63,530 nt of DNA from the NCBI GenBank assembly GCA_964424335.1, contig CAYRIY010000001.1, forward strand, positions 60,340 to 123,869, written 5' to 3'. The stretch comes from an uncultured Clostridia bacterium. Lineage in GTDB: Bacteria; Bacillota; Limnochordia; DTU080; RSA5. Positions 2,955 through 61,983 of this stretch are shown in pieces. The translations under genes were made by a program, and so were the position numbers. The notes below the pieces were generated by a model. It saw only the letters and a list, made by a program, of their open reading frames with translations, was not told the DNA's origin and ran no database searches. Within the stretch, counting starts at the first letter, position 1; the number at the start of each line of letters is the position of its first letter.

Positions 2955-4324
2955 TCTCTGACGGGTGGGCGCGGCGGAACATACCGCCAATCTAAGTCGT
3001 CGTCGATTCGAATCCATTCGTGAGCCGACAGGCGGGAGGCGATGAGGTACTGCGCCTCCCGCAAGTTTCTTCCGGGCGTTTCTTTGACGCACGTGTACGA
3101 TACGCCGTCGATGACAAATCCGTAAAAGTCGACTTGCGATACTTGGTGCACTCTGTATACGTAGCGGTCGTCGAAACTCTCGTTCCAAACGCGCCAGCGG
3201 CCCATGACGTCTCTTGCAAGCTGCGGACAGGCGTCCTTACTGTCACGGAGGTTGATCATGTAAAAGCGTGTGTCGACTCCGGTCTCCCTGGTCGGGTCGA
3301 GTCCCGCCTCCATTTGCCGGGCGCCTTGTCCGATCGACATGACCGCTGCTTCAAGCTGGGCCCCTCCCAAAGACCTCGGGGCGTCCACCGCAAATACGTA
3401 TCCGAAATAGAGCAGCGCTACGACGCCTCCGATCCAGATGAGCGGCGTGGGGAGGGTAAGCGGGGGCGGGATCGGCGGAGACTCATAACCGCTTGGGCCA
3501 AGCTCCTCTCGATAGGGACGCCAGTACTCGGTCGAACTCAAAGTCGTCGCGGTCGAAATCCGGTCGACGAGGTCGTAGAAGACGGCGCCCGCGAGGTCTG
3601 AAAGGCGTCGGTCATCTACGGCGTCAAAGGGTCCTTTAACGACTAGCGCTACCGGGAGCGAACGCACCGTCTCGTCTTCTCCAGCGTCCAATGTGACCTC
3701 GATTGAACTGGGACCTGAAAGGCGAAACTGGCGTGCCAGCAATACCTTTACGGTCCACGCGCACGCGGCTGTTGGCAGGCGCCTCGCCATGAGCGCGTAT
3801 GCCCGGAGTCGAACGCTCCACCAAAGCCGCAACCAAATGGGGCAGGAGACGATCATCACCAGGCTTTCCGCGCGGGATACGCCCGGCACAGACGAGCTTG
3901 CGACCATGACGACGCCTGTGGCGACCGCTCCGAGCACAGCAAAGAAGTGGCCTGGGTGAAAAGCGGCGGGTCCGACTCGAAAGAGCCACGACCTGCGCAC
4001 GCCGGCGCGGTGGAGGAGGACGTACCCGGCGCCGATCAGAGCAAACCAAATGAATGCCGCGGCCCATTGGCCGATTGAATACGGTGGGAGCGGCTGGCAC
4101 GCCGACAAGTCGACAGGCCAAAGAATTTGGTCGGTAAAGAGGCAGTTGACGACAAACCAAACAGGAATCCCAAGGGGCAGCAGAAGGAGGCCGCAAAGCG
4201 CGCCAATCCCGGCGATCATATAGCATGGGCCGTACGCCGTAACCCCTTCCATGAATGACGTGCGCAGTTCGGGGCGATTCCATAGGCTCGCGGGGGCCGA
4301 TCGATCCGATTCGGTTGTCATCAT
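2951..4324 (-). CDS. Polytopic membrane protein of unknown function
   Basis: Long ORF with several hydrophobic helices plus a C-terminal soluble domain. I prefer the ATG-ATG at 4324/4321 (GGGGA upstream) over the track start at 4399, which overlaps the upstream gene. Confidence 0.55.
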   Translation of the reverse strand: MMTTESDRSAPASLWNRPELRTSFMEGVTAYGPCYMIAGIGALCGLLLLPLGIPVWFVVNCLFTDQILWPVDLSACQPLPPYSIGQWAAAFIWFALIGAGYVLLHRAGVRRSWLFRVGPAAFHPGHFFAVLGAVATGVVMVASSSVPGVSRAESLVMIVSCPIWLRLWWSVRLRAYALMARRLPTAACAWTVKVLLARQFRLSGPSSIEVTLDAGEDETVRSLPVALVVKGPFDAVDDRRLSDLAGAVFYDLVDRISTATTLSSTEYWRPYREELGPSGYESPPIPPPLTLPTPLIWIGGVVALLYFGYVFAVDAPRSLGGAQLEAAVMSIGQGARQMEAGLDPTRETGVDTRFYMINLRDSKDACPQLARDVMGRWRVWNESFDDRYVYRVHQVSQVDFYGFVIDGVSYTCVKETPGRNLREAQYLIASRLSAHEWIRIDDDLDWRYVPPRPPVRD

Positions 4325-7751: not shown

Positions 7752-8221
7752 TTCCCGTCCAAGCGCGATAGGTGGCCGTTTATTTTCTCGAGCAGTCGCC
7801 CAAGGAGGACTGTCTCCTCTTCCGACAATCCGGACATGATTTCTTGAACGGCCGCTCGGTGCCTCGGCTCCAGGTCATGGAGGACCCGTTGCCCTTTTTC
7901 GCTCAGAGTTATTCGCACCACCCGGCGGTCTTCGTCCGAGCGCGTGCGCTCCACCCAACCCTCGCGCACCAGCCGGTCCACGATGCCCGACGTATTGCCA
8001 GGGTCGACCATGGCCGTTTGCGCCAACTGGGTGAGCGTGATCCCTTCAGGCGGAATCCGCCTTAGGATCCCGAATTGAGATCCAGTTAGCCCGTAGGCGT
8101 CAAACAGGCCTTGCATCTCCCTCCTCAATCTGCGAGAGGTTCGCAAGATGCTCCGGTATACGTCGATCGTCATGTCCAGAGCCGTCCGCTCAGGCGTCGG
8201 CGCGGTCGGTTGAGTCAACAT
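7748..8221 (-). CDS. MarR-family transcriptional regulator
   Basis: Winged-HTH pattern (LTGSQFGILRRI...LTQLAQTAMVDPGNTSGIVDRLVREGWVER...DRRVV). First gene of the operon with the ABC exporter. Confidence 0.9.
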   Translation of the reverse strand: MLTQPTAPTPERTALDMTIDVYRSILRTSRRLRREMQGLFDAYGLTGSQFGILRRIPPEGITLTQLAQTAMVDPGNTSGIVDRLVREGWVERTRSDEDRRVVRITLSEKGQRVLHDLEPRHRAAVQEIMSGLSEEETVLLGRLLEKINGHLSRLDGK

Positions 8222-8448: not shown

Positions 8449-9222
8449 TCAAAGCAGTGAGGCCGATGACAGGTCGAGGAAGAGCGTTGCGTTTGGATGG
8501 GTGCGGAGAATCGAGGCAGGGCAGCTCTCGGCCAACGGCCCCGTAAGCGCGTCCTTTACGGCCTGGGCTTTTCGCTGGTCTGGAACGACGGAAATGATCT
8601 CCTTCGATTTCATGATCGTCGGAACGGTTAGCGTGATGGCGTATTTTGGCACGTCGTCGACGGTCGGAAACCAGCCTTCTCCGACCTGTTGCATTCTGCA
8701 CGCGTGGTCGAGTTCGACGATTTTCACGCCTCGCTCGTCGTTGAAGTCGGCGACGGGGGGATCGTTGAACGCGATGTGGCCGTTCTCGCCGATGCCGATG
8801 AAACCAAGGTCGATCGGGTTTCGCGCAAGCAACTCTTCATACCTGCGGCACTCCGCCTCACCGTCGCCGGTATCTCCGTGGATGTAGTGAAACTTTCGAG
8901 GTCCATAGGGGCGCTCGATACGCTCCGTGAGCCAAAGGCGAAAGCTCGCGGGGTGGTTGGCGTCGATGCCCAGGTATTCGTCGAGGTGGAACGCCTCGAT
9001 GCGGTCCCATTCGAGGTCGAATTCTTTGAGTGCCGCCACAAATTCAAACTGCGATGCGCCGGTCGAGAAGAGGAGGTTAGCCGTCTCTTTTTGAGACAAC
9101 ACGCTGCGAATCCGGTCCGCCGCCAAGGCGGCCGCGGCCCTGCCGAGCTCTACCTTATTCTCGTACACTTCGACGCTCAACTTCTCGTATGTTCGCACAT
9201 CTACTCTAGCCATGAATTGCAC
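8449..9222 (-). CDS. nagB: Glucosamine-6-phosphate deaminase/isomerase family protein
   Basis: STGASQ, HLDEY and GIGENGHIAFNDPP motifs typical of NagB/Pgl-family sugar-phosphate isomerases. Confidence 0.8.
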   Translation of the reverse strand: MQFMARVDVRTYEKLSVEVYENKVELGRAAAALAADRIRSVLSQKETANLLFSTGASQFEFVAALKEFDLEWDRIEAFHLDEYLGIDANHPASFRLWLTERIERPYGPRKFHYIHGDTGDGEAECRRYEELLARNPIDLGFIGIGENGHIAFNDPPVADFNDERGVKIVELDHACRMQQVGEGWFPTVDDVPKYAITLTVPTIMKSKEIISVVPDQRKAQAVKDALTGPLAESCPASILRTHPNATLFLDLSSASLL

Positions 9223-9233
9223 TCCCTCACTGG

Positions 9234-33724: not shown

Positions 33725-33800
33725 TGGCAGGGGAGACAGGACTTGAACCCGCAACCTTCGGCTTTGGAGGCCGCTGCTCTACCGATTGAGCTACTCCCCT
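33725..33800 (-). tRNA. trnW: tRNA-Trp (anticodon CCA), CCA end encoded
   Basis: Reverse complement AGGGGAGTAGCTCAATCGGTAGAGCAGCGGCCTCCAAAGCCGAAGGTTGCGGGTTCAAGTCCTGTCTCCCCTGCCA folds as a cloverleaf: 7-bp acceptor stem, GCTC/GAGC D stem, anticodon loop CUCCAAA. Confidence 0.95.
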
Positions 33801-35318: not shown

Positions 35319-36653
35319 CTAGTGGCCCGACGCCTTGGCGATCGGATGCACTGAAGGGAGGATGCGGGGCTCACGACGGTGGACCTTGAGGTATCGCTCG
35401 AGGGCAGCGACCATCTCGGGGGTGAGAAAATGCTCGATGTCGTCAGCGTCTCGGTCGACGTGGTCCGCCTTGATGTCCGCCTCGTGCATCAGGTACATTT
35501 CCCAGAGGCGGTGCCGGTGCACGACGTTCCATGCTTCTTCGATTCCGTTTTGGGTCAGCGTGCAAATGGAATCTGATCCGCGCTCGTATATGCGAATCAA
35601 TCCCTTGCTCTGCAGGCGGCGCGCCATCCGCTTCAACTCGCCGACACTCTTGCCGGATTTAGCGACAATGGCCTCCATAGGGATTCCTTTGGAAAGCAGT
35701 CCGGTATCCGCAACGGACGGCTGATCGACGCTCAATTCATAGAGCTCATACACATTGCGGAGAAAGTTCTCCCGAGCGACTTTTCGCCGGAGCTTGAGGA
35801 AACGGTAACTCTTTGCCGCAAGGCCGCGCTCGGGTGCGCATATGAGCGACAGGACGAAAAGCGCGGTAGCGCTCAAGACCACCAGCGGCCCTGTCGGCAG
35901 CCGAACGCCCAGCGTGCTGAAGAACGTGCCCGAGGCGCCGCTCATGCCGCCGAAAACACCAGCGAGCAGGAGCATGATGCCGAGCCTCTCGGTCCAGTAA
36001 CGCGCAGCGATCGCCGGGATAATGAGCATCGCTGCCATGAGCACGACGCCAACCGCCTGCAGGCCGATGACGACCGCCATCACAAGCAACGTCATGAGCA
36101 GGCCGTCAATCGCCCTCATCGGCAAACCGATCCCATTGCCAAATCCGGGATCAAAGCAGAGCACCTTGAACTCCTTATAGAACAGGAGTACCGACGCGAT
36201 CATGATCAGTGCGACGGCGCCCATAACAACGACGTCTGAGCGTACGAGCGCGGCCGCTTGCCCAAAGAGAAAGTCGTCTAGGCCCGCTTGGTTTCCTGCT
36301 CCCATGTGTTGAATCATCGTCAGCAACACGATTCCAACGCCGAAAAAAACCGTCAAGACGACGCCGAGCGCGGTATCTTCTTTGAGTTTGGTCCATCTTG
36401 TGATGGCGTCGATGCTTCGAGTTGCCACGATCCCGACGAGCCCTGCGCCGACGAGGAGGGGGAGGATCTCCTTGCTGCCGGTCATCAAGAATGCGAGGCA
36501 TACGCCCGGAAGGGCCGCGTGCGCGAGGACGTCTCCAAGTAGACTTCTACCTCGAAGGAGCGCAAACGTCCCGATTACGCCTCCGCTCACGCCAAGGAGG
36601 AGCGAACCCGCGAATACCCACTGAAAGTTTGGATCGAGAAAAAGCTGCCACAT
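35319..36653 (-). CDS. mntC: Metal ABC transporter permease (ABC-3) fused to a C-terminal DtxR/MntR-like metalloregulator domain
   Basis: aa 1-~285 are a permease (DVLAHAALPGV). aa ~290-444 have wHTH-like and dimerisation/metal-site motifs: ...KGLIRIYERG...LTQNGIEEAWNVVHRHRLWEMYLMHEADI...DADDIEHFLTPEMV. Confidence 0.85.
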   Translation of the reverse strand: MWQLFLDPNFQWVFAGSLLLGVSGGVIGTFALLRGRSLLGDVLAHAALPGVCLAFLMTGSKEILPLLVGAGLVGIVATRSIDAITRWTKLKEDTALGVVLTVFFGVGIVLLTMIQHMGAGNQAGLDDFLFGQAAALVRSDVVVMGAVALIMIASVLLFYKEFKVLCFDPGFGNGIGLPMRAIDGLLMTLLVMAVVIGLQAVGVVLMAAMLIIPAIAARYWTERLGIMLLLAGVFGGMSGASGTFFSTLGVRLPTGPLVVLSATALFVLSLICAPERGLAAKSYRFLKLRRKVARENFLRNVYELYELSVDQPSVADTGLLSKGIPMEAIVAKSGKSVGELKRMARRLQSKGLIRIYERGSDSICTLTQNGIEEAWNVVHRHRLWEMYLMHEADIKADHVDRDADDIEHFLTPEMVAALERYLKVHRREPRILPSVHPIAKASGH

Positions 36654-39286: not shown

Positions 39287-40366
39287 ATGGAGGCGGCCGC
39301 ACTGAACGCGACTTCGTTTAACATAGGCTGCGACTACTTTTTGGCCTCGCTCACAGGTCGTTCGGAACGAACCAAGGTGGCGTACGACAAGGACTTGCTA
39401 CAATTTAAGCTGTACCTCGTCTTGTTTCGGGGTCACCTGATCACCTCCGGAGATCGAGCCCTTATTCCTAAGCTCGAGGAGCACCTCGAGAAGGCAAACG
39501 GCAAGCTGGTCGACACACGCTTTTCGACCAGGCGCCACCGACAAGAGTCCCAATCAAGAACGATCCTCGATCAATTTGACGTGGCGCTGGACGAGATTCG
39601 CAAGGAAGACATCGTCGGCTACTTTGGTTATTTGGAGTCTGGCAAAGGTCTCACGCGAAGTACGCTCCTTCGCCGACTGGCATCGTTACGCCGGTTCTTT
39701 TCGCTTTTGTCCAAGGAAGGCTATCCGATCGCCCCGGAGGTCGTCGAAAAACTCGACGATATGGAGATCCGGCGCGATCGGCGTCTTCCAATCGCACTTG
39801 ATCGCGATGAAGCGTTGGCGTTCCTCGACGTCATCGACAACCCGCGAGATCGTGCCATGGTCCTGGTGATGCTCTTTATGGGCCTGAGGATTTCTGAGGT
39901 GGTCCAACTCAACGTGGACGACATCGGACGGCATACCGATGGCATCACGTTTGTTGGCAAAGGAGGCAAGGAACGATATGTACCCGTGCATCCCGTGGTC
40001 CGAGACGCGATCGCAGACTACAAACTCGTACGGCCTGAAGTGATGAGCGATTCCGAGGGCGAACCTTTGTTCGTCAGTCAGCATCGCCGACGAATCGACC
40101 CCTCCACCGTCCGCCGTTTCATCAAGCGTTACGCTGAAAAAGTGGAACAAATGGAGAGTCGCAAACGGCAAAAGTTGAGCCCTCACAAGCTGCGACACAC
40201 ATTTGCCACCCTCCTGCTGCAAGGTGACGTCGACATCCGTCACATTCAGGAACTGCTTGGTCATGAAAACCTGTCGACGACAGAGATTTACACGAGCGTC
40301 CATAAAAGAGATCTCGAGCGAGCCATCGATCGCCACCCATTGGACATGGTGACCGGTCGAGAATGA
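39287..40366 (+). CDS. Tyrosine recombinase, XerC/XerD/phage-integrase family
   Basis: N-terminal SAM-like domain (YFLASLTGRSERTKVAYDKDL). Catalytic RHRY elements: GLRISEV, HKLRHTFAT, LLGHENLSTTEIY. Confidence 0.9.
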   Translation: MEAAALNATSFNIGCDYFLASLTGRSERTKVAYDKDLLQFKLYLVLFRGHLITSGDRALIPKLEEHLEKANGKLVDTRFSTRRHRQESQSRTILDQFDVALDEIRKEDIVGYFGYLESGKGLTRSTLLRRLASLRRFFSLLSKEGYPIAPEVVEKLDDMEIRRDRRLPIALDRDEALAFLDVIDNPRDRAMVLVMLFMGLRISEVVQLNVDDIGRHTDGITFVGKGGKERYVPVHPVVRDAIADYKLVRPEVMSDSEGEPLFVSQHRRRIDPSTVRRFIKRYAEKVEQMESRKRQKLSPHKLRHTFATLLLQGDVDIRHIQELLGHENLSTTEIYTSVHKRDLERAIDRHPLDMVTGRE

Positions 40367-40408: not shown

Positions 40409-40882
40409 CTATTTAGGCATCGCGGGAACGATCAGCACTTGTCCCGGATACACTGTCGCATCGCTCAGCCCGTTGTTTCGTCTGATCCAGTCGACCGTCT
40501 CTCGAACATCGATTCCCGTGGGCCCATGCTCCCGTGCGATGCCCCAAAGCGTATCTCCCGAGCGTACAACGATCTCCCGGGAGTCGAACCGACCATCGCT
40601 CTGAGAAGTCAGCCACGCCGACACGCCCTCCGCATGACTCGCGGCGACGTTAACTCCGACATATCCCAACCAAAGTAGTGCGGCCGCAACGGCGCCCACC
40701 ACAACGTAGCGCGCAACGGCAGCGATCTCCCGCATACTAATGCTTTGCGAACGTTCGTTCGCAATATTTGGCGCCGCGATCGCGCGCAGGCTCGTGCTGC
40801 GGTCGTAAGTATCGCGGCGCGTCATCATGTGACGGCGTTGATTGCGGGCCTTCTGCAGATCGAGCACGACGTTGCTTGCCAT
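40409..40882 (-). CDS. LysM-domain membrane protein, YneA-like SOS cell-division inhibitor candidate
   Basis: Cytoplasmic N-terminus, one TM (VVVGAVAAALLWLGYVGV), C-terminal LysM (VVRSGDTLWGIAREH...VYPGQVLIVP). Divergent from lexA, with two Cheo boxes upstream. Confidence 0.75.
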   Translation of the reverse strand: MASNVVLDLQKARNQRRHMMTRRDTYDRSTSLRAIAAPNIANERSQSISMREIAAVARYVVVGAVAAALLWLGYVGVNVAASHAEGVSAWLTSQSDGRFDSREIVVRSGDTLWGIAREHGPTGIDVRETVDWIRRNNGLSDATVYPGQVLIVPAMPK

Positions 40883-40993: not shown

Positions 40994-41321
40994 TCGTCAA
41001 GTGTTTTCGCGCATTTTTTGACTCCCACATCTTCACCCGCACCGTTACCCGCATCAAAGTGGCGCCTAATGATGCCTGCAGAGGCAGATTCCACGAGTCG
41101 CCCACTGATCGCCCGACCGTGGCATCCTAATCCGGGCCGTGAACGAATGAAGGTTCGAAGCAAGCCTTCGGTGCTGGCCCTATTCAAGCGGTACTTAGAG
41201 AATAAAAACCAATCGGGTTGTCGAAGGATGTGGCGAACGGAATTGACGAGCGGGCGCAGCCGGTCGCCAAGTGTCTGATCTTGCGGCCTTGCTGTTTTCG
41301 GGGAATGTGTTTGGTCCAATG

Positions 41322-41335
41322 CGAACTTATGTTTG
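41322..41335. promoter_or_regulatory. LexA box (imperfect) in the lexA promoter
   Basis: CGAACTTATGTTTG overlaps a -35-like TTTGCG. Confidence 0.6.
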
Positions 41336-41343
41336 CGTCAGAC

Positions 41344-41357
41344 CGAACATATGTGTT
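41344..41357. promoter_or_regulatory. LexA box (imperfect) in the lexA promoter
   Basis: CGAACATATGTGTT lies immediately upstream of a -10-like TATGAT. Confidence 0.5.
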
Positions 41358-41411
41358 ATGATACTCACAACGTGGGTTTGCAAAGTTTGGCATGTGAGGG
41401 AGTGCGGTGGG

Positions 41412-42020
41412 TTGGACGGATTGACGCCCCGACAAAAGGAGATATTGGGCTACATAAAGCGCGAAGTGTTACAGCGTGGGTATCCCCCGTCGGTTCGGGA
41501 GATCGGACAGGCAGTCGGACTCAATTCAAGCTCGACGGTGCATGGCCACCTTGGCCGGCTCGAGGAGAAGGGTTATATCCGTCGAGATCCCACAAAGCCA
41601 AGGGCGATCGAATTGGTCAACGATCCCGACGTCATACGTAAGGACATCATCAACGTTCCGATCGTTGGTCGGGTCACCGCCGGTGAGCCCATTCTGGCCG
41701 TAGAGAACATCGAAGACTTCTTTCCGATGCCGAAGGATTTTGCAAACTATGAGGACGTGTTCATGCTTCGGGTTCGCGGGGACAGCATGATCAACGCAGG
41801 CATCTTGGACGGAGACTTCGTCGTAGTACGTCAGCAGGCGCACGCGGATAACGGTGACATCGTCGTCGCGCTAATCGACGACGAGGCTACGGTGAAGCGC
41901 TTTTACAGCGAGGCAGATCATGTGCGGCTACAACCCGAAAATCCAACGATGTCTCCGATAAGGGTTGTAGAAGTCCAGATTCTCGGCAAAGTGGTTGGTG
42001 TGTTCCGAAAGGTTCGGTGA
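41412..42020 (+). CDS. lexA: LexA repressor
   Basis: [13 protein letters not shown]...[10 protein letters not shown], cleavage-site region [13 protein letters not shown]24 peptidase motifs GDSM and [17 protein letters not shown] at 41412 with GAGGGAG 9 nt upstream. The track start at 41271 would bury the LexA boxes inside the CDS. Confidence 0.9.
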
Positions 42021-42762: not shown

Positions 42763-43218
42763 CTAGCTAGATGGTAGAGAGGCGTCGAGTTTGATGGAGA
42801 GCCTCGCCTTTGCCTTGTCGTCTCGAGCGCTTCTTGCCCCGATGTGATTGTCCGGCCGAACGCGGCGCCTAGCGTTTTTTAGGTGAGCGCGTTTCATCGG
42901 GGAAACGCCAAGTATGGAAAAGAACATCTCAAACGCACGCTCCTGCCCGGAGATGACCGGATCGGGGCGTTGATCCTCGCCGTGGGAATGAAAAAGGGGT
43001 AGCGCAGCATACGATCGGCTTGCTCGCCGATACGCCGCTTCTACCCCGTTCTCGTGTACATCTTTTGTGAGCAAGAGGTATATCTGCCGTCTTGCCTCCG
43101 CCTGTGCCGTCCAATACGGCGGGTCTTCAGCTTTGGCGCCGGCCAAGAAGTCTTGCTTGGCCAGGCGCATGGATTTCTTGAGCGCCTTTAGAACGTCGTC
43201 CTGACTGATCGAAAACAT
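42763..43218 (-). CDS. Hypothetical protein (151 aa)
   Basis: Clean ORF with a protein-like, helical composition (MFSISQDDVLKALKKSMRLAKQDFLAG...). No family recognised. Confidence 0.5.
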   Translation of the reverse strand: MFSISQDDVLKALKKSMRLAKQDFLAGAKAEDPPYWTAQAEARRQIYLLLTKDVHENGVEAAYRRASRSYAALPLFHSHGEDQRPDPVISGQERAFEMFFSILGVSPMKRAHLKNARRRVRPDNHIGARSARDDKAKARLSIKLDASLPSS

Positions 43219-52322: not shown

Positions 52323-53842
52323 GAGATCGCCTCCTCGGCCATACTGATCGCTTTGAGCATCGCTCTTGCTTTGTTTACCGTCTCTTCGTATTCAAGCTCG
52401 GGCACCGAGTCTGCCACGATGCCGGCTCCCGCCTGGATGTAGGCCACTCCGTCCTTGATGATGACCGTTCGAATCGTGATGCACGAGTCCATGTTTCCAG
52501 AGAATCCGAAGTACCCGATCACGCCCGAATAGGGACCCCGACGTACGGGCTCGAGTTCGTCTATGATCTCCATCGCTCGGATCTTGGGCGCGCCCGACAC
52601 CGTTCCTGCTGGAAACGTTGCCTTCAGCAGGTCAAACGGGTCGCACGACGCCGCAAGTCGCCCCACGACGTTGGACACGATGTGCATGACGTGGGAGTAT
52701 CGCTCGATCACCATCAACTCACTGACGCGGACGCTGCCGTATTCGCAGACTCTTCCAAGGTCATTTCGGCCCAGGTCGACCAGCATAACGTGTTCGGCGC
52801 GCTCTTTCGCGTCCGCGAGCAGTTCCTCTGCGAGCGCTCGGTCTTCCTCGTCGGACCTGCCTCGGGGCCGAGTCCCTGCGATCGGCCTCAGTTCCGCGAC
52901 GCCGTCTTCGACGCGGACCATTACTTCGGGACTCGATCCCACGACCGCCATATCGGGAAACTGCAGACAGTACATGTAAGGCGAAGGGTTTACCGTGCGC
53001 AAGATGCGGTACAGGCCGATCGGGTCGGTGTTGACGGCCGCTTTGAAGCGTTGCGAGAGCACTACTTGAAAGATGTCGCCGGCCCGAATGTACTCTTGGC
53101 ATTTTCGCACCGCATCTTCGAACGCGCGCTTTTCAAAATTGGATTGTACGGCGATCTCGGGCAAGTCCTCCAGGGCGAGTCCGTCTAGGGCAGGAACGCT
53201 CGTGGTCTGACGCAATCTTTCGATCACGCCGGCGATGGCCCGGACCGCTCGTTCGTAAGACGCAATCGGGTCGCGTTCGTCGACGTGCGCGTTCACGACG
53301 ATCTTCAGCTTGCGCTGGGCGTGGTCAAAAATGAGCACGGTGTCGCTGATGATGAAGTACGATTCGGGAACGTCGAGTTCATCGGGGTTTTGATCTGGGA
53401 TCCTCTCGATGTGTCGGATCATGTCGTAGCTCATGTATCCGACGGCGCCGCCGTAAAACCTCGGGAGACCCTCGACCTTTGCAGGTCGATACCTGCTCAT
53501 CAAATCCCGCAGCGCGTCGATCGGGTCATCGACCTCGCGCGATTCAAAGGAGAATCCCTCCCCTGAGGGCGTCCCGATCTCCACGCGTGTGCCGCGGCTG
53601 CGAAAAACGATTGATGCGGTATTGCCTACAAACGAGTAGCGGCCGAGCTTGTCGCCGCCCTCGACGCTTTCGAGGAGGTAACGATAGGGGGCGTCGCCCA
53701 GTTTGAGCATTGCGGAGACCGGCGTCTCAACGTCGGCAATGATCTCTTTGTAGACGGGGATGAGGTTGGCTTCGCGGGCGAGTTCGACGAATCGATCACG
53801 AGAAGGGTAGATGCCGCGATACAGCGGGTCGATCGTTGACAT
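52319..53842 (-). CDS. trpE: Anthranilate synthase component I
   Basis: [16 protein letters not shown] and GAGIVADS motifs. ATG at 53842 with AAAGGAGGAG upstream. The longer track ORF runs into the leader. Confidence 0.95.
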
Positions 53843-53919
53843 TTTGGGAAAGCTCCTCCTTTGATGTTGCCGAAAGAAGCCTCCCAAGTAGAGCGGGCGA
53901 AAAAGGGCACGGGCCCAAT

Positions 53920-53961
53920 AAAAAAACGGACCCTCGATTTTTAAAAGCAACCGTGAGCCCG
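53920..53961 (-). terminator. Candidate trp attenuator terminator
   Basis: Minus strand CGGGCTC-N21-GGGTCCG (7 bp including two G-U pairs) followed by TTTTTTTATT, 78 nt upstream of the trpE ATG. Confidence 0.5.
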
Positions 53962-54024
53962 AATCTCTCAAATCCAAAAGGAAGAGATCGTAAAGGATGC
54001 CTGTAGCGCCAGATTGAAAAACGA

Positions 54025-54114
54025 CTCGGCGCTCGGGCCTAGGCTCAGCTCTGCTCTTCTCGGCTTTTCTCTGCTCTGCTCGGGCTGGCTACACTACAAA
54101 CTTTCGCTCGTCTC
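54025..54114 (-). promoter_or_regulatory. TRAP-type binding array: 14 (G/U)AG triplets in the trp leader
   Basis: Minus strand: GAG-ac-GAG-N10-TAG-tg-TAG-N7-GAG-ca-GAG-ca-GAG-N7-GAG-aa-GAG-ca-GAG-ct-GAG-cc-TAG-N4-GAG-N4-GAG. Confidence 0.8.
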
Positions 54115-54199
54115 AAGCTTCGTACGCAATCCGCACACGCACACGGCTTCGCTTGCAAGTTCCGAAAGCTTCGCAACAAGGGACCTTGCAGGTAGTACG

Positions 54200-54229
54200 A
54201 TTTTACTCGTCAACAATAGGTCTTGTCAA
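54200..54229 (-). promoter_or_regulatory. Candidate sigma-A promoter of the trp operon
   Basis: Minus strand TTGACA-N18-TAAAAT. The -35 overlaps the dapF stop codon. Confidence 0.5.
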
Positions 54230-55110
54230 GCAGAATGTGACAGCGCGCGTCCCCCTGACAACCACTCGTCTGAGAGTTCGCCCTGGCACACAAGGGTTGC
54301 GGGGCCGGTCATGTAGACCGGGCCACCGGATTGCCGCCATTCGACGTCGAGTTCTCCTCCTAGAAGGCGCACCGTCGTCTTTTCGCCGGCAAATCCGTTC
54401 AAAGCAGCGGCGACGCTAGCAGCGCACGCCCCGGTGCCGCACGCCATCGTCTCACCCGAGCCCCGCTCCCATACGCGCATCTCGAGGATGCCCTCTCCAA
54501 CGACTTTGATGAACTCCACGTTGGCTCGGTTTGGAAAGGCAGGGTGTCTTTCGAGTTTCGGACCAATCTCATTAACGAGCCGGTCGGTGATTTCGTCGGC
54601 GAATACCACACAGTGTGGGTTTCCCATCGAGACGGCTGTCACCAAGAAGGTGACGCCGTCCACCTCGAGCGGCGCCTGCACGGCATTTGCAGCCGGATCT
54701 CCGATCATTGGAATCTCCGATCGCGACAGGCGGGGCGCTCCCATGTCGACGCGGACTCGGTCCACCTTTCCACCCGAAGTCGAAAGTTGCAGTTTTCGCA
54801 AGCCGGCGCCCGTCTCGATCATGAGCTCGGTCTTTCGCGTCAAACCCGCATCATAAACGTATTTTCCGACGCACCGAATCCCGTTGCCGCACATCTCGGA
54901 CTCGCTTCCGTCGGAGTTGAACATGCGCATCCGAAAGTCGCCAAGCTCACTTGGAAGGATCGCAATGAGCCCGTCGGAACCGACGCCGAAATGAGGATCG
55001 CTCACCCGGCGCGCCAGCGCCGGAAAATCGATGCGGTCGGTCCCGGAGGTGAGGTCCAGGTAGATGTAGGCGTTGCCGAGTCCATGCATCTTGACGAACG
55101 GCAGGGACAT
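54226..55110 (-). CDS. dapF: Diaminopimelate epimerase
   Basis: FVKMHGLGNAY, NSDGSE..MCGNG and ACGTGA motifs (two catalytic Cys). Confidence 0.95.
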   Translation of the reverse strand: MSLPFVKMHGLGNAYIYLDLTSGTDRIDFPALARRVSDPHFGVGSDGLIAILPSELGDFRMRMFNSDGSESEMCGNGIRCVGKYVYDAGLTRKTELMIETGAGLRKLQLSTSGGKVDRVRVDMGAPRLSRSEIPMIGDPAANAVQAPLEVDGVTFLVTAVSMGNPHCVVFADEITDRLVNEIGPKLERHPAFPNRANVEFIKVVGEGILEMRVWERGSGETMACGTGACAASVAAALNGFAGEKTTVRLLGGELDVEWRQSGGPVYMTGPATLVCQGELSDEWLSGGRALSHSA

Positions 55111-55172: not shown

Positions 55173-55424
55173 TCAAGAAATCGTGTCAGCTTTTTGCGTG
55201 AACTCCGCATGGGCCGAGTGGTTCGCATCGCCTGCCGCCGATCCACAAATGACGCAATAGCCTTTCTCCCACGTTTGCCTGCGCATCTCCAGCGGCGCGT
55301 AGCGGGCGCCTTCGAGTGAGCCTTCCCTTTTTCCCTGTCTGCGCCCAATCGCGTATCCGAAGAAAAATGCGAGAAACGCGACGAGCAATATGAGGCTCGG
55401 GGCGTTCCACAATCGTTCGACCAA
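55173..55424 (-). CDS. Possible small single-TM protein (83 aa)
   Basis: In-frame TTG at 55424, 5 nt after the upstream TAG. TM segment SLILLVAFLAFFFGYAI followed by a charged tail with CVIC. The longer track ORF (to 55598) overlaps the upstream gene in another frame. Confidence 0.35.
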   Translation of the reverse strand: MVERLWNAPSLILLVAFLAFFFGYAIGRRQGKREGSLEGARYAPLEMRRQTWEKGYCVICGSAAGDANHSAHAEFTQKADTIS

Positions 55425-55429
55425 CTGTT

Positions 55430-56053
55430 CTACCAGCGGACCCACCCCCGGGTTTTCACGATTGGCCTTGCGATCGCGTGGCACGACCATGAGACGACGG
55501 GGACCGCAACGAAGACCACCGCTGTTTCGACGGGCAAGATGAGACAGCTTGCAACGAGCGCGGCGAGCGCCGCCATGCGCGCCTCCATGATTCCCCACCT
55601 TCGTGCGATGTTGGGGTTGCCTGTCCTTTGATCGACGATCAAGTCGTCGAGATCGTCAAATACTTGGACGGAAAACATGACGAAAAGTGACCACAAGACC
55701 GTTGGAAGCGGCAAGAACAAGAGCGCGACAAGGAGCGTGATCCCGCCCTCCTGGTATCCGACGAGCCCTGAAGGGAGCTGTCTGTCGAAGTCGCCGGCCA
55801 TCCCCACGGCATATGCGCCGACCATGAGAGCAGCCGCGGTTTGGGCGTCCAACATCACGGCGAGCGCAAATCCGATCAACGAATAGGGCAACGTGCCCTC
55901 GCCCAGCCGAGTCGCAAGGGTTTCGACTCCCTCAAACACGTCGTAACGCAGGTCCAGGAAATCGTCCATCAGGCGGATGACGCCGCCCATCAGCAAGATG
56001 CATGTGATGGTCCGAGCAAGGTCGGCCAAGTGCTCAAATCCAGCGCCAGACAA
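55430..56053 (-). CDS. Polytopic membrane protein with two DDxxDxxxD motifs (UbiA-like?)
   Basis: 207 aa, about 6-7 TM. MDDFLDLRYD and FDDLDDLIVDQRTGNPN motifs, one in each half. The TTG start overlaps the GTPase gene by 20 nt. Confidence 0.6.
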   Translation of the reverse strand: MSGAGFEHLADLARTITCILLMGGVIRLMDDFLDLRYDVFEGVETLATRLGEGTLPYSLIGFALAVMLDAQTAAALMVGAYAVGMAGDFDRQLPSGLVGYQEGGITLLVALLFLPLPTVLWSLFVMFSVQVFDDLDDLIVDQRTGNPNIARRWGIMEARMAALAALVASCLILPVETAVVFVAVPVVSWSCHAIARPIVKTRGWVRW

Positions 56054-57806: not shown

Positions 57807-59039
57807 TTGACGAAAAGAGGCGCATTGGGATTGCCTTACTACCGGAGCAATCTGCTGGTGCTCTGGGTCACGACCTTCCTCGCTGCCGCGAGTTGGACCC
57901 AGGTTGTTCCCTTTCTCCCCATATTCCTCGCCGAACTTGGCGTCGAGGACAACCTAAACCAGTGGGCGGGAATCGTTTTCGGCGTGCAGTACGCCGCCGG
58001 AATCATGATGGGGCCCTTGTGGGGACGACTTGCCGACCATCGCGGCCGCAAATTGATGACGCTGCGGGCCGGCGTCTGCCTGAGCGCCATCTACTTTCTC
58101 ACAGGGCTTGCCACCGAGGCTTGGCACGTCGCCGTGTTGCGATTCCTCAATGGCGCCTTGACCGGGTTTATTCCATCCTCGATCGCCTTGGTTGCGGCGA
58201 ACACCCCAAAGGAGCTCGCGCCAAGGTATGTCGCTTCGATTCAAACGTCCGTTGCCGCCGGCACAGTAGTCGGTCCAATGATTGGGGGCATTTTTGCCGG
58301 AGTCTTCGGCATTCGCGGCGCCCTCTTTACTTCGGGCTCTGTGGTGGGATTTGCGACGCTGCTCGTGCTCTTGATCGTGAAAGAGAAGCACGCGGGCAAA
58401 CCCAAGGAACGAACGACGCTCCTTCAAGACTTCTCGACGGCCTTGCATTCACCGACGCTCCTTGTGGTGATGATCGTCACGGTCGTCGCCATGTTTGGAA
58501 GCATTGCCGTCCAACCGATGCTTGCGCTTTACGTCCAAGAGCTCTCAGGAAGTTCGTCTACGGCTTTGAGCGGGGTTATTTTCTCTCTCCCCGGACTTGC
58601 TCTCGTGATCTCCGCGAGCGCGTGGGTGCGCATCGGCGAGCGCATCGGCTTTCGCATCGTCATGCGGCGCGCACTCGCGATTGCGGCCATCATTGCGCTC
58701 GCCATGCCGTTCATCCATTCGATCGTCTGGTTCGGCGTGGCATACTTCCTGCAGGGACTCTTCATCGCAGCGCTGCGGCCCTCTTCGTCAGCCATGATCT
58801 CGACCGAGGTAGACAGCTCCTTTCATGGAAGGGCGTTTGGCATGCAACAGTCCGCTACGACGCTCGGCGGCATGTTTGGCCCGATACTTGCAGGTCTGAT
58901 AGGCGGCATGTTCGGCTTAGGCTCGGTGTTTTGGTTGGTAGGGGTCGTCATGGCGGCAGGCGTCGCCGTGATGTACTTCCTCGAGCGGGAACGCTCCAAA
59001 GGCGCCACTTCCCTAGAGTCCAACGCGACGTTTCAATAG
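57807..59039 (+). CDS. MFS transporter (12 TM)
   Basis: GPLWGRLADHRGRK (MFS motif A) and hydrophobic periodicity. The overlapping Arg-rich frame 57803..59071 is rejected. Confidence 0.85.
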   Translation: MTKRGALGLPYYRSNLLVLWVTTFLAAASWTQVVPFLPIFLAELGVEDNLNQWAGIVFGVQYAAGIMMGPLWGRLADHRGRKLMTLRAGVCLSAIYFLTGLATEAWHVAVLRFLNGALTGFIPSSIALVAANTPKELAPRYVASIQTSVAAGTVVGPMIGGIFAGVFGIRGALFTSGSVVGFATLLVLLIVKEKHAGKPKERTTLLQDFSTALHSPTLLVVMIVTVVAMFGSIAVQPMLALYVQELSGSSSTALSGVIFSLPGLALVISASAWVRIGERIGFRIVMRRALAIAAIIALAMPFIHSIVWFGVAYFLQGLFIAALRPSSSAMISTEVDSSFHGRAFGMQQSATTLGGMFGPILAGLIGGMFGLGSVFWLVGVVMAAGVAVMYFLERERSKGATSLESNATFQ

Positions 59040-61020: not shown

Positions 61021-61983
61021 TCACACGTAAAATGCTGCTCGTATATCGGCCTCGACGAGATCGACCGCACGTTCGATTGACCCGATCTCGTCGAGGTCGA
61101 TCCATTTGATGCGGTCCTCTCTTCGAAACCAAGTGTATTGCCGCTTGGCAAAGCGGCGCGTGTCCCGCTTCAAAATCTCAACAGCCTCTTCGAGCGTGCG
61201 CTCTCCCTTCAAATAGCTCGCGATCTCCTTAAATCCCAGGGCTTGCCTTGCAATTTTAGGCTCACCGTACTTGGCCAACACCTCTTTGATCTCGCCTACC
61301 AAACCCATTCGTATTTGCTCGTCGACCCGCTCGTCGATCCGGCGGTAGAGCTCTTCTCTAGGACGAGTGAGCCCAAACATGAGCGTTTCGTATGGCGGCG
61401 CGGGAGCGGTCTTGGACTTGAGGTGTTCGGAGAAGGGAACGCCTGTTCGAGCATGCACTTCAAGGGCGCGAACGACCCGCCGCACGTCATTTGGATGGAT
61501 GCGGGCCGCCGCGGCCGGATCGACGGCGCGCAGCCGGTCGTGCAGCGCATCCGGGCCGAGGAGCTCTGCTTCTTGCTCGAGCTCGCGCCGTAAAATCGGA
61601 TCGGCGCCTTCGTCTGGAAAGAGAAACTCATCGAGGACGGCTTTTACGTAAAGCCCCGTGCCGCCCGAAAGAATGGGCAGTCGCCCTCGGGAATGCACGG
61701 ATGCGATCGCCTGGTGCGCGAGGGTGCGGTATTCGGCCACATTGAACGCTTCATCGGGGTCGACGATGTCGATCAAGTGGTGAGCGACGCCCCGCCGCTC
61801 CTTTATCGTTGGCTTGGCGGACGCGATGTCGAGCCCGCGATAGACCTGCATGGAGTCTGCCGTTACGATCTCGCCATTGGTTTTGAGCGCCAAGCGGATG
61901 GAGAACTCCGTCTTTCCCACCGCAGTAGGCCCTACGATGACCACCAATGGCTGCTTTGATTTGAGATCGGATCCACTCGTCAC
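61021..61983 (-). CDS. miaA: tRNA dimethylallyltransferase
   Basis: VIVGPTAVGKT P-loop, SADSMQVYRGLDI, GGTGLY. Confidence 0.95.
   Translation of the reverse strand: MTSGSDLKSKQPLVVIVGPTAVGKTEFSIRLALKTNGEIVTADSMQVYRGLDIASAKPTIKERRGVAHHLIDIVDPDEAFNVAEYRTLAHQAIASVHSRGRLPILSGGTGLYVKAVLDEFLFPDEGADPILRRELEQEAELLGPDALHDRLRAVDPAAAARIHPNDVRRVVRALEVHARTGVPFSEHLKSKTAPAPPYETLMFGLTRPREELYRRIDERVDEQIRMGLVGEIKEVLAKYGEPKIARQALGFKEIASYLKGERTLEEAVEILKRDTRRFAKRQYTWFRREDRIKWIDLDEIGSIERAVDLVEADIRAAFYV

Follow-up and report, generated by a model that had tools for sequence, protein, structure and literature searches.

The trp leader and its triplet array

The window, meaning the whole stretch of DNA analysed here (63,530 nucleotides), contains the trp operon of an uncultured Clostridia bacterium, and the question raised by this locus is what controls it. 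The leader of trpEGDCFBA-ynbB is very probably a protein-dependent transcription attenuator of the TRAP type. The cis evidence for this is strong, and the limit of the reading is the unlocated TRAP gene. The host organism is seen in manure, compost, and gut metagenomes. Matches to its TrpE at 84-62% identity form its lineage, and named sequences occur only at about 61% and below. The operon, its leader, and the gene before it comprise the following features:

dapF, minus strand: gene upstream of the trp leader, ending at 54226, with its stop TGA (54228-54226) inside the -35 box
54200-54229, minus strand: sigma-70-type promoter TTGACA-N18-TAAAAT, with TTGACA at 54229-54224 and TAAAAT at 54205-54200
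54115-54190, minus strand: 5' part of the leader, upstream of the triplets, with two predicted hairpins at 54190-54154 and 54149-54115 (RNAfold, -23.7 kcal/mol)
54025-54114, minus strand: putative TRAP-binding site of 14 (G/U)AG triplets, from the sequence
54039-54096, minus strand: array core of twelve slots at an exact 5-nt step, 11/12 filled (10 (G/U)AG and 1 AAG)
53842-46024, minus strand: trp operon, trpEGDCFBA-ynbB
53842-52319, minus strand: trpE, start ATG at 53842-53840
52322-51744, minus strand: trpG
51712-50693, minus strand: trpD
50693-49902, minus strand: trpC
to 47271, minus strand: trpF, trpB, and trpA in this order after trpC, 47271 being the end of trpA
47274-46024, minus strand: ynbB, whose GTG start overlaps the TGA of trpA

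The promoter claimed in the original prediction is borne out, as it agrees with the consensus at 11/12 positions and is the sole promoter-like site found by a promoter scan of 53700-54400. From promoter to trpE the leader measures about 350 nt. The presence of trpG within the operon also holds, as does the overlap of ynbB with trpA, where the GTG of the GTGA at 47274-47271 is in frame with ynbB. The Pfam families of the operon genes are taken from syntenic relatives. A metatranscriptome contig covers 54234-53384, from the leader into trpE; it consists of either read-through RNA or contaminating DNA and is silent on regulation.

The array matches the earlier description exactly, with 14 triplets at 54114-54025 and eight spacers of exactly 2 nt. 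Its RNA reads GAG-ac-GAG-N10-UAG-ug-UAG-N7-GAG-ca-GAG-ca-GAG-N7-GAG-aa-GAG-ca-GAG-cu-GAG-cc-UAG-N4-GAG-N4-GAG. The triplets start at 54114, 54109, 54096, 54091, 54081, 54076, 54071, 54061, 54056, 54051, 54046, 54041, 54034, and 54027 (minus strand), and the spacers in the same order are 2, 10, 2, 7, 2, 2, 7, 2, 2, 2, 2, 4, and 4 nt. Because of the spacers of 10, 7, 7, 4, and 4 nt, one ring cannot bind all 14 triplets. An AAG lies in register within the 7-nt spacer at 54068-54062, so that 54081-54039 is an unbroken series of nine NAG triplets with a strict step of 5 nt.

Fourteen triplets in 90 nt is the maximum for both strands of the window, where the background is 2.2 per 90 nt and the next best count is 10. 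The largest count in 100 dinucleotide shuffles of the whole window is 12. The pattern (GAGNN)3GAG, with at most one mismatch, has six matches in the window, all of them within 54081-54039; the shuffles contain 0.53 on average, and none of the 100 reaches six. Chains of at least four (G/U)AG triplets with 2-3 nt spacers occur in the 63.5 kb only in the trpE leader. Other GAG-rich spots (9148-9228, 58542-58612, 42764-42827, and 61346-61432) were considered as arrays and rejected as irregular. A TRAP-regulated leader is recognised by a run of about 9-11 or more triplets, mostly 2-3 nt apart, and by an intrinsic terminator between the array and trpE, and the window contains both. When the 90-nt segment alone is shuffled, the count is kept (mean 13.3 triplets) since GA/AG dinucleotides make up the segment. 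The signal therefore consists of the local composition and the 5-nt register, together with the location, and not of the count given that composition.

Conservation of the array and other regulator types

The trpE surroundings of seven relatives were compared, with TrpE identities to the window of 82% (L001/L002), 84% (L003), 75% (L004 and L101), 73% (L005), 70% (L184), and 66% (L187). The closest of them, L003, has an incomplete leader and was for this reason left out of the array comparison. The gene order is kept and comprises a spoVK-like AAA protein, a GTPase, membrane proteins, dapF (in some), trpEGDCFBA, ynbB, speD, and an ECF sigma factor. The GC content of the window and the related loci is 53-65%.

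A small conserved protein lacking a Pfam match is encoded upstream of dapF or the trp leader, at 55173-55598 (minus strand) in the window, 6430-6765 in L001, 8365-8631 in L004, and 9393-9641 in L005. Its one membrane helix precedes GYAIGRRQGKREG...RYAPLEMRRQTWE.G.C.ICG, and the protein was rejected as a regulator candidate on account of being a membrane protein. In the window, L001, and L004, dapF separates the gene of this protein from the trp leader, which is not the case in L005, L184, and L187.

The original prediction had proposed a comparison of relatives' leaders, and the array is kept in every complete one, namely 6/6 relatives with TrpE 66-82% identical. The array of L001 consists of 13 GAGs in succession, 2-3 nt apart; L005 has 9 triplets in a row, L187 has 3 plus 7, and L184 has 4 plus 3, while L004 and L101 have about 17 triplets in blocks. 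In loci of 3.5-21 kb searched on both strands, the sole chain of at least four triplets with 2-3 nt spacers in L001, L004, L101, L005, L184, and L187 belongs to the coding strand of the trpE leader. The array as such is therefore kept, although its length and grouping change between relatives, with the number of triplets drifting freely from about 7 to 17. Strain variants of the window in other metagenomes and the metatranscriptome differ at leader positions 54027, 54024, 54063, 54102-54103, and 54177. Four of the five changes in or beside the array fall outside triplets, and the fifth converts the 14th GAG to AAG; the core triplets are spared.

The array might instead be a purine-rich chance or compositional feature lacking any regulatory role, with the hairpin and U7 tract being part of something else. 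The shuffled 90-nt segment keeps about 13 triplets, so part of the count is indeed GA-rich composition. Such an origin is nevertheless highly improbable, since the window and each related locus have a single such array, which invariably lies on the coding strand ahead of trpE and persists across TrpE identities of 66-84% although the sequence around it diverges. The pattern test and the exact register of 5 nt also argue against it.

The tRNA-Trp T-box leaders of other Firmicutes occupy the equivalent position, as terminator-bearing leaders before trp genes, but a T-box match is absent here. At the gathering score, the T-box model (Rfam RF00230) matches nowhere in the window, and at E<=10 nowhere in 53700-54400. 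No other Rfam family matches 53700-54400 even at E<=10, the Trp_leader family being among those lacking a match in the window leader, and the five related loci examined have no match to any Rfam family, T-box included. The claimed lack of a T-box thus agrees with the covariance models in the window leader and in the five relatives, and the lack of Rfam matches rules out a T-box, the Trp leader family, and the known riboswitches. The leader has two ORFs of at least 40 codons (40 and 44 codons, with TTG starts), and neither contains a Trp codon. Among ORFs of this size there is thus no candidate for the leader peptide of a ribosome-mediated trp attenuator, which would have tandem Trp codons overlapping alternative hairpins.

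Terminator, with the predicted antiterminator and Shine-Dalgarno hairpin

The 3' part of the leader and its predicted pairing partners in the array comprise the following features:

54081-54090, minus strand: AGCCAGCCCG, upstream strand of the antiterminator predicted for the nascent RNA, overlapping triplets 4 and 5
54041-54058, minus strand: AAGAGCAG...UGAGCCU, upstream strand of an alternative antiterminator, pairing with 53960-53943 in the minimum-energy fold of the full leader
53927-53961, minus strand: terminator hairpin CGGGCUC-A-CGGUU...AAUCG-A-GGGUCCG, folded at -13.7 kcal/mol
53920-53926, minus strand: U7 tract of the terminator, from the sequence
53900-53916, minus strand: second small hairpin GGGC-CCGU-GCCC followed by U5, predicted
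53844-53887, minus strand: predicted hairpin burying the trpE Shine-Dalgarno sequence
53860-53853, minus strand: trpE Shine-Dalgarno sequence AGGAGGAG

The hairpin and U7 tract said to lie downstream of the array are confirmed at 53961-53920. The hairpin contains G-U pairs and an internal loop. A simple terminator scan missed it at 53961-53927, probably because the internal loop and the nine-base end loop fall outside a definition based on plain stems and loops of 3-8 bases. The hairpin at 53900-53916, just past the main terminator, is possibly a back-up or tandem terminator. Clearer terminators are found in the equivalent place in L004, L005, L184, and L187 (-11.6 to -18.3 kcal/mol), and L001 has no convincing terminator before trpE. 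With the exception of L001, every leader with a readable 3' part has a hairpin and U-run before trpE.

Two pairings of the terminator 5' arm with the array are predicted. In the nascent RNA, AGCCAGCCCG (54090-54081) pairs with CGGGCU..GGUU (53961-53949). In the minimum-energy fold of the full leader, UGAGCCU (54047-54041) pairs with GGGCUCA (53960-53954), and this helix is extended by AAGAGCAG/UUGCUUUU; the GAGCCU/GGGCUC antiterminator of the original prediction is present in this fold. When the 3' arm of the terminator is withheld, the 5' arm pairs with an array segment in all five leaders tested.

The window RNA up to the U tract folds freely at -85.6 kcal/mol with 0/12 terminator pairs; folds with the terminator are at least 4.5 kcal/mol less stable. 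If only the triplet bases are barred from pairing, 12/12 terminator pairs form; random masks of equal size give the full 12 pairs in 27/100 trials. The folding with and without triplet masking that had been suggested for this leader therefore turns the antiterminator of the window into the terminator. In L004, L005, L184, and L187, the terminator is present in the equilibrium fold with or without masking. By these folds, an antiterminator in the four relatives would be kinetic at best, or absent as reported for B. halodurans. The window is therefore the one leader that carries the antiterminator half of the model.

In the proposed mechanism, transcription would start a few bases past the -10 box at 54205-54200. 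With plentiful tryptophan, a TRAP-like ring activated by tryptophan, the product of an mtrB gene elsewhere in the genome, would wrap the triplets at 54114-54025. The bound ring would occupy 54090-54081 and 54058-54041, which are otherwise partners of the terminator 5' arm. The hairpin at 53961-53927 with its U7 tract could then form, and transcription would stop before trpE. With scarce tryptophan, the free array would form the antiterminator, and RNA polymerase would read through. From the leader it can be inferred that TRAP is present in the host genome, that it binds the array, and that the binding depends on tryptophan.

A variant of this model, in which TRAP acts without a true antiterminator and 53961-53927 is a weak terminator that needs bound TRAP, is unlikely. 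It would suit the four relatives, whose terminator is in the equilibrium fold whether the array is masked or not, and also the window hairpin, with its G-U pairs, internal loop, and -13.7 kcal/mol. In B. halodurans, TRAP-dependent termination is reported to take place at a weak terminator with no antiterminator, which in part also applies to B. subtilis (PMC3064811). Yet the free fold of the window favours the antiterminator by 4.5 kcal/mol, masking the triplets flips the fold, and the 5' arm pairs with the array in 5/5 leaders while the 3' arm is unmade. The strong terminators of the relatives (-15 to -18 kcal/mol), moreover, would terminate constitutively without some form of anti-termination.

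Translation may be controlled as well. In the attenuator model, the conserved hairpin over the trpE Shine-Dalgarno sequence may add translational control, as in B. subtilis, whose TRAP-dependent block of trpE translation the predicted hairpin resembles. An equivalent hairpin is predicted in 5/6 of the relatives folded (L001, L003, L004, L005, and L184), at -16 to -35 kcal/mol for the whole folded segment; that of L001 is at 7948-7983. The sequences of these hairpins differ, for example UUGGGAGGCUUC.../...GGAGCUUUCCCAA vs UUGGGUGCUC.../...GAGUCACCCAA. L187 is the exception, as its U-rich tail pairs with the stretch just before the Shine-Dalgarno sequence. Pair counting over this region was dropped because the alignment is too poorly registered.

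Comparable leaders and the TRAP gene

The leader of B. subtilis trpEDCFBA likewise has (G/U)AG triplets mostly 2 nt apart in the 5' leader (PMC3064811). In both leaders, the array overlaps an antiterminator (predicted in the window) that competes with a modest downstream terminator, a hairpin can hide the trpE Shine-Dalgarno sequence (also predicted in the window), and there is no T-box. B. subtilis has 11 triplets with 2-3 nt spacers, whereas the window has 14 in blocks, with spacers that include 10, 7, 7, 4, and 4 nt. The window leader is also longer, with some 80 nt between the predicted start and the first triplet and about 230-270 nt between that start and the terminator. Its antiterminator is predicted as a long-range helix enclosing most of the array. 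The operon of the window has trpG and ynbB and follows dapF, while the trp operon of B. subtilis follows aroH. A further difference is that neither the window nor the flanks of the relatives yield a TRAP gene.

B. halodurans resembles the window in having more triplets than TRAP subunits, with 19 NAG triplets in its trp leader and a 12-subunit TRAP (PMC3184956). The 14 triplets had been flagged as unusual and left as an open question, to which this leader already provides the answer. It differs in reportedly having no overlapping antiterminator and a very weak terminator (PMC3064811), whereas antiterminators are predicted in the window.

Four uncultured Bacillota genomes (L031, L067, L073, and L074) serve as a positive control, since mtrB is directly upstream of trpE in them. 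Their mtrB-trpE intergenic regions have a block-wise (G/U)AG array followed by a hairpin and a U-run. The array of L074 comprises 11 triplets in a row, and that of L031 packs 17 into 83 nt; the weak case, with only three in a row, is L067. The block-split arrays of variable length and the terminator before trpE are features shared with the window. The TRAP gene is the immediate upstream neighbour of trpE in these loci, whereas in the window this neighbour is dapF. The TrpE of L067 and L073 is 48-49% identical to that of the window. Further GAG-NN repeats in the mtrB-trpE loci (~3000-3560) overlap the trpE Shine-Dalgarno sequence and the first codons, an arrangement that suggests combined transcriptional and translational control there.

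The G. stearothermophilus TRAP sequence used here is identical to PDB 1C9S. No mtrB gene (PF02081) is found in the 63.5 kb window by tblastn and two TRAP HMMs on six-frame ORFs, nor by HMM and tblastn within +-10 kb of the trp operon in L001, L004, L005, L184, and L187. In B. subtilis, mtrB lies in a separate mtrAB operon, outside the trp operon, and the absence of TRAP from a 63 kb window is therefore expected.

The TRAP family comprises 4559 clusters at 90% identity, and the best 120 of these 4559 in a word-index protein search are from Bacillaceae only. A search of representatives gave 127 clusters at 50% identity. Beyond Bacillaceae, TRAP is found in Limnochordia, Moorellales, Desulfotomaculia, Syntrophomonadaceae, Heliorestis, Carboxydothermus, and many Bacillota MAGs. 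DNA identity between the TRAP genes of different lineages is about 70%. A genome scan with a high-GC TRAP alignment gave Dormibacterota and assorted Bacillota, none from the lineage of the window. Among the matches listed in a metagenome scan that used a TrpE alignment, the relatives are all at <=57% identity.

Candidates for a TRAP of this lineage were P0370/P0371 (dnaE-mtrB-pyk, 58.5% GC) and P0325 (mtrB-pfkA). Both were rejected, as they belong to other assemblies than the trpE genes of the relatives. The candidate loci are in GCA_018436755.1 and others, and the relatives' trpE genes are in GCA_041685055.1 and GCA_041686855.1. Tetranucleotide correlation was rejected as a link of relatedness because an unrelated locus scores 0.90 and a true relative 0.79.

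In the dnaE-mtrB-pyk context (L087-L100), the TRAP gene is between dnaE and pyruvate kinase, and the organism, with 58.5% GC, is widespread in public runs. In the mtrB-pfkA context (L090/L091), it is just before pfkA. Both contexts are unlike the folE-mtrB of Bacillus. The TRAP homologues closest to query P0267 (L007-L030) belong to MAGs of Candidatus Dormibacterota, of which some carry the label Chloroflexi or Actinomycetes, and TRAP thus appears to exist outside Bacillota. Some Dormibacterota TRAP genes start in GAG-rich sequence, where no regular array is seen.

Since no TRAP gene is found in the window or the relatives' flanks and none is linked to the lineage, the array might be bound by a different, non-TRAP protein, such as an oligomeric ring or repeat reader, in a lineage that has no mtrB and has arrived at the 5-nt GAG periodicity by convergence. 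The triplet numbers of 7-17, with 13 in a row in L001, give no exact fit to an 11-mer and could be read in the same way. This explanation is quite improbable. The specific code by which TRAP recognises RNA consists of GAG/UAG triplets spaced by 2 nt (PMC3064811, PMC3184956), and TRAP sites with variable, redundant numbers of triplets are already on record. Uncultured Bacillota commonly carry TRAP genes, and TRAP-linked trp operons among them show such arrays; the location of mtrB outside the trp operon in B. subtilis also speaks against it. There is similarly little probability that the lineage lacks a canonical TRAP or has a TRAP ring with a different subunit number, the array being read by an undescribed protein or a larger ring. 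The larger ring is considered because one relative (L001) has 13 perfectly spaced GAGs.

The TRAP-type attenuator of the original prediction thus stands as regards the significant and conserved array, the terminator, and the lack of a T-box. The antiterminator is not general in the folds of the relatives, and the window and flanks contain no TRAP gene. A row of GAG/UAG triplets with a terminator is the known signature of TRAP control, and the locus is in all likelihood a new example of a well-understood switch. With it, the range of the recognisable TRAP-type trp attenuator grows to include a Bacillota lineage of compost and manure that is uncultured and has a fairly high GC content (53-65%). 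The differences from B. subtilis are matters of degree, and the understanding of the TRAP mechanism is unchanged. The example is of use in annotating trp regulation in metagenome-assembled genomes and in designing a detector of such cis elements, since, to our knowledge, Rfam has no model for TRAP sites.

The window contains a few other genes of note. An ABC-3 family metal-transporter permease at 35319-36653 (minus strand) is fused to the C-terminal metal-binding/dimerisation domain of an iron-dependent repressor and sits in a ZnuA / ABC-3 / ATPase operon. A tRNA gene is present at 33728-33800 (minus strand) and a tyrosine recombinase gene at 39287-40366. A LysM protein gene at 40409-40882 (minus strand) is divergent from lexA at 41271-42020, a yneA-lexA-like arrangement that is typical of Bacilli.
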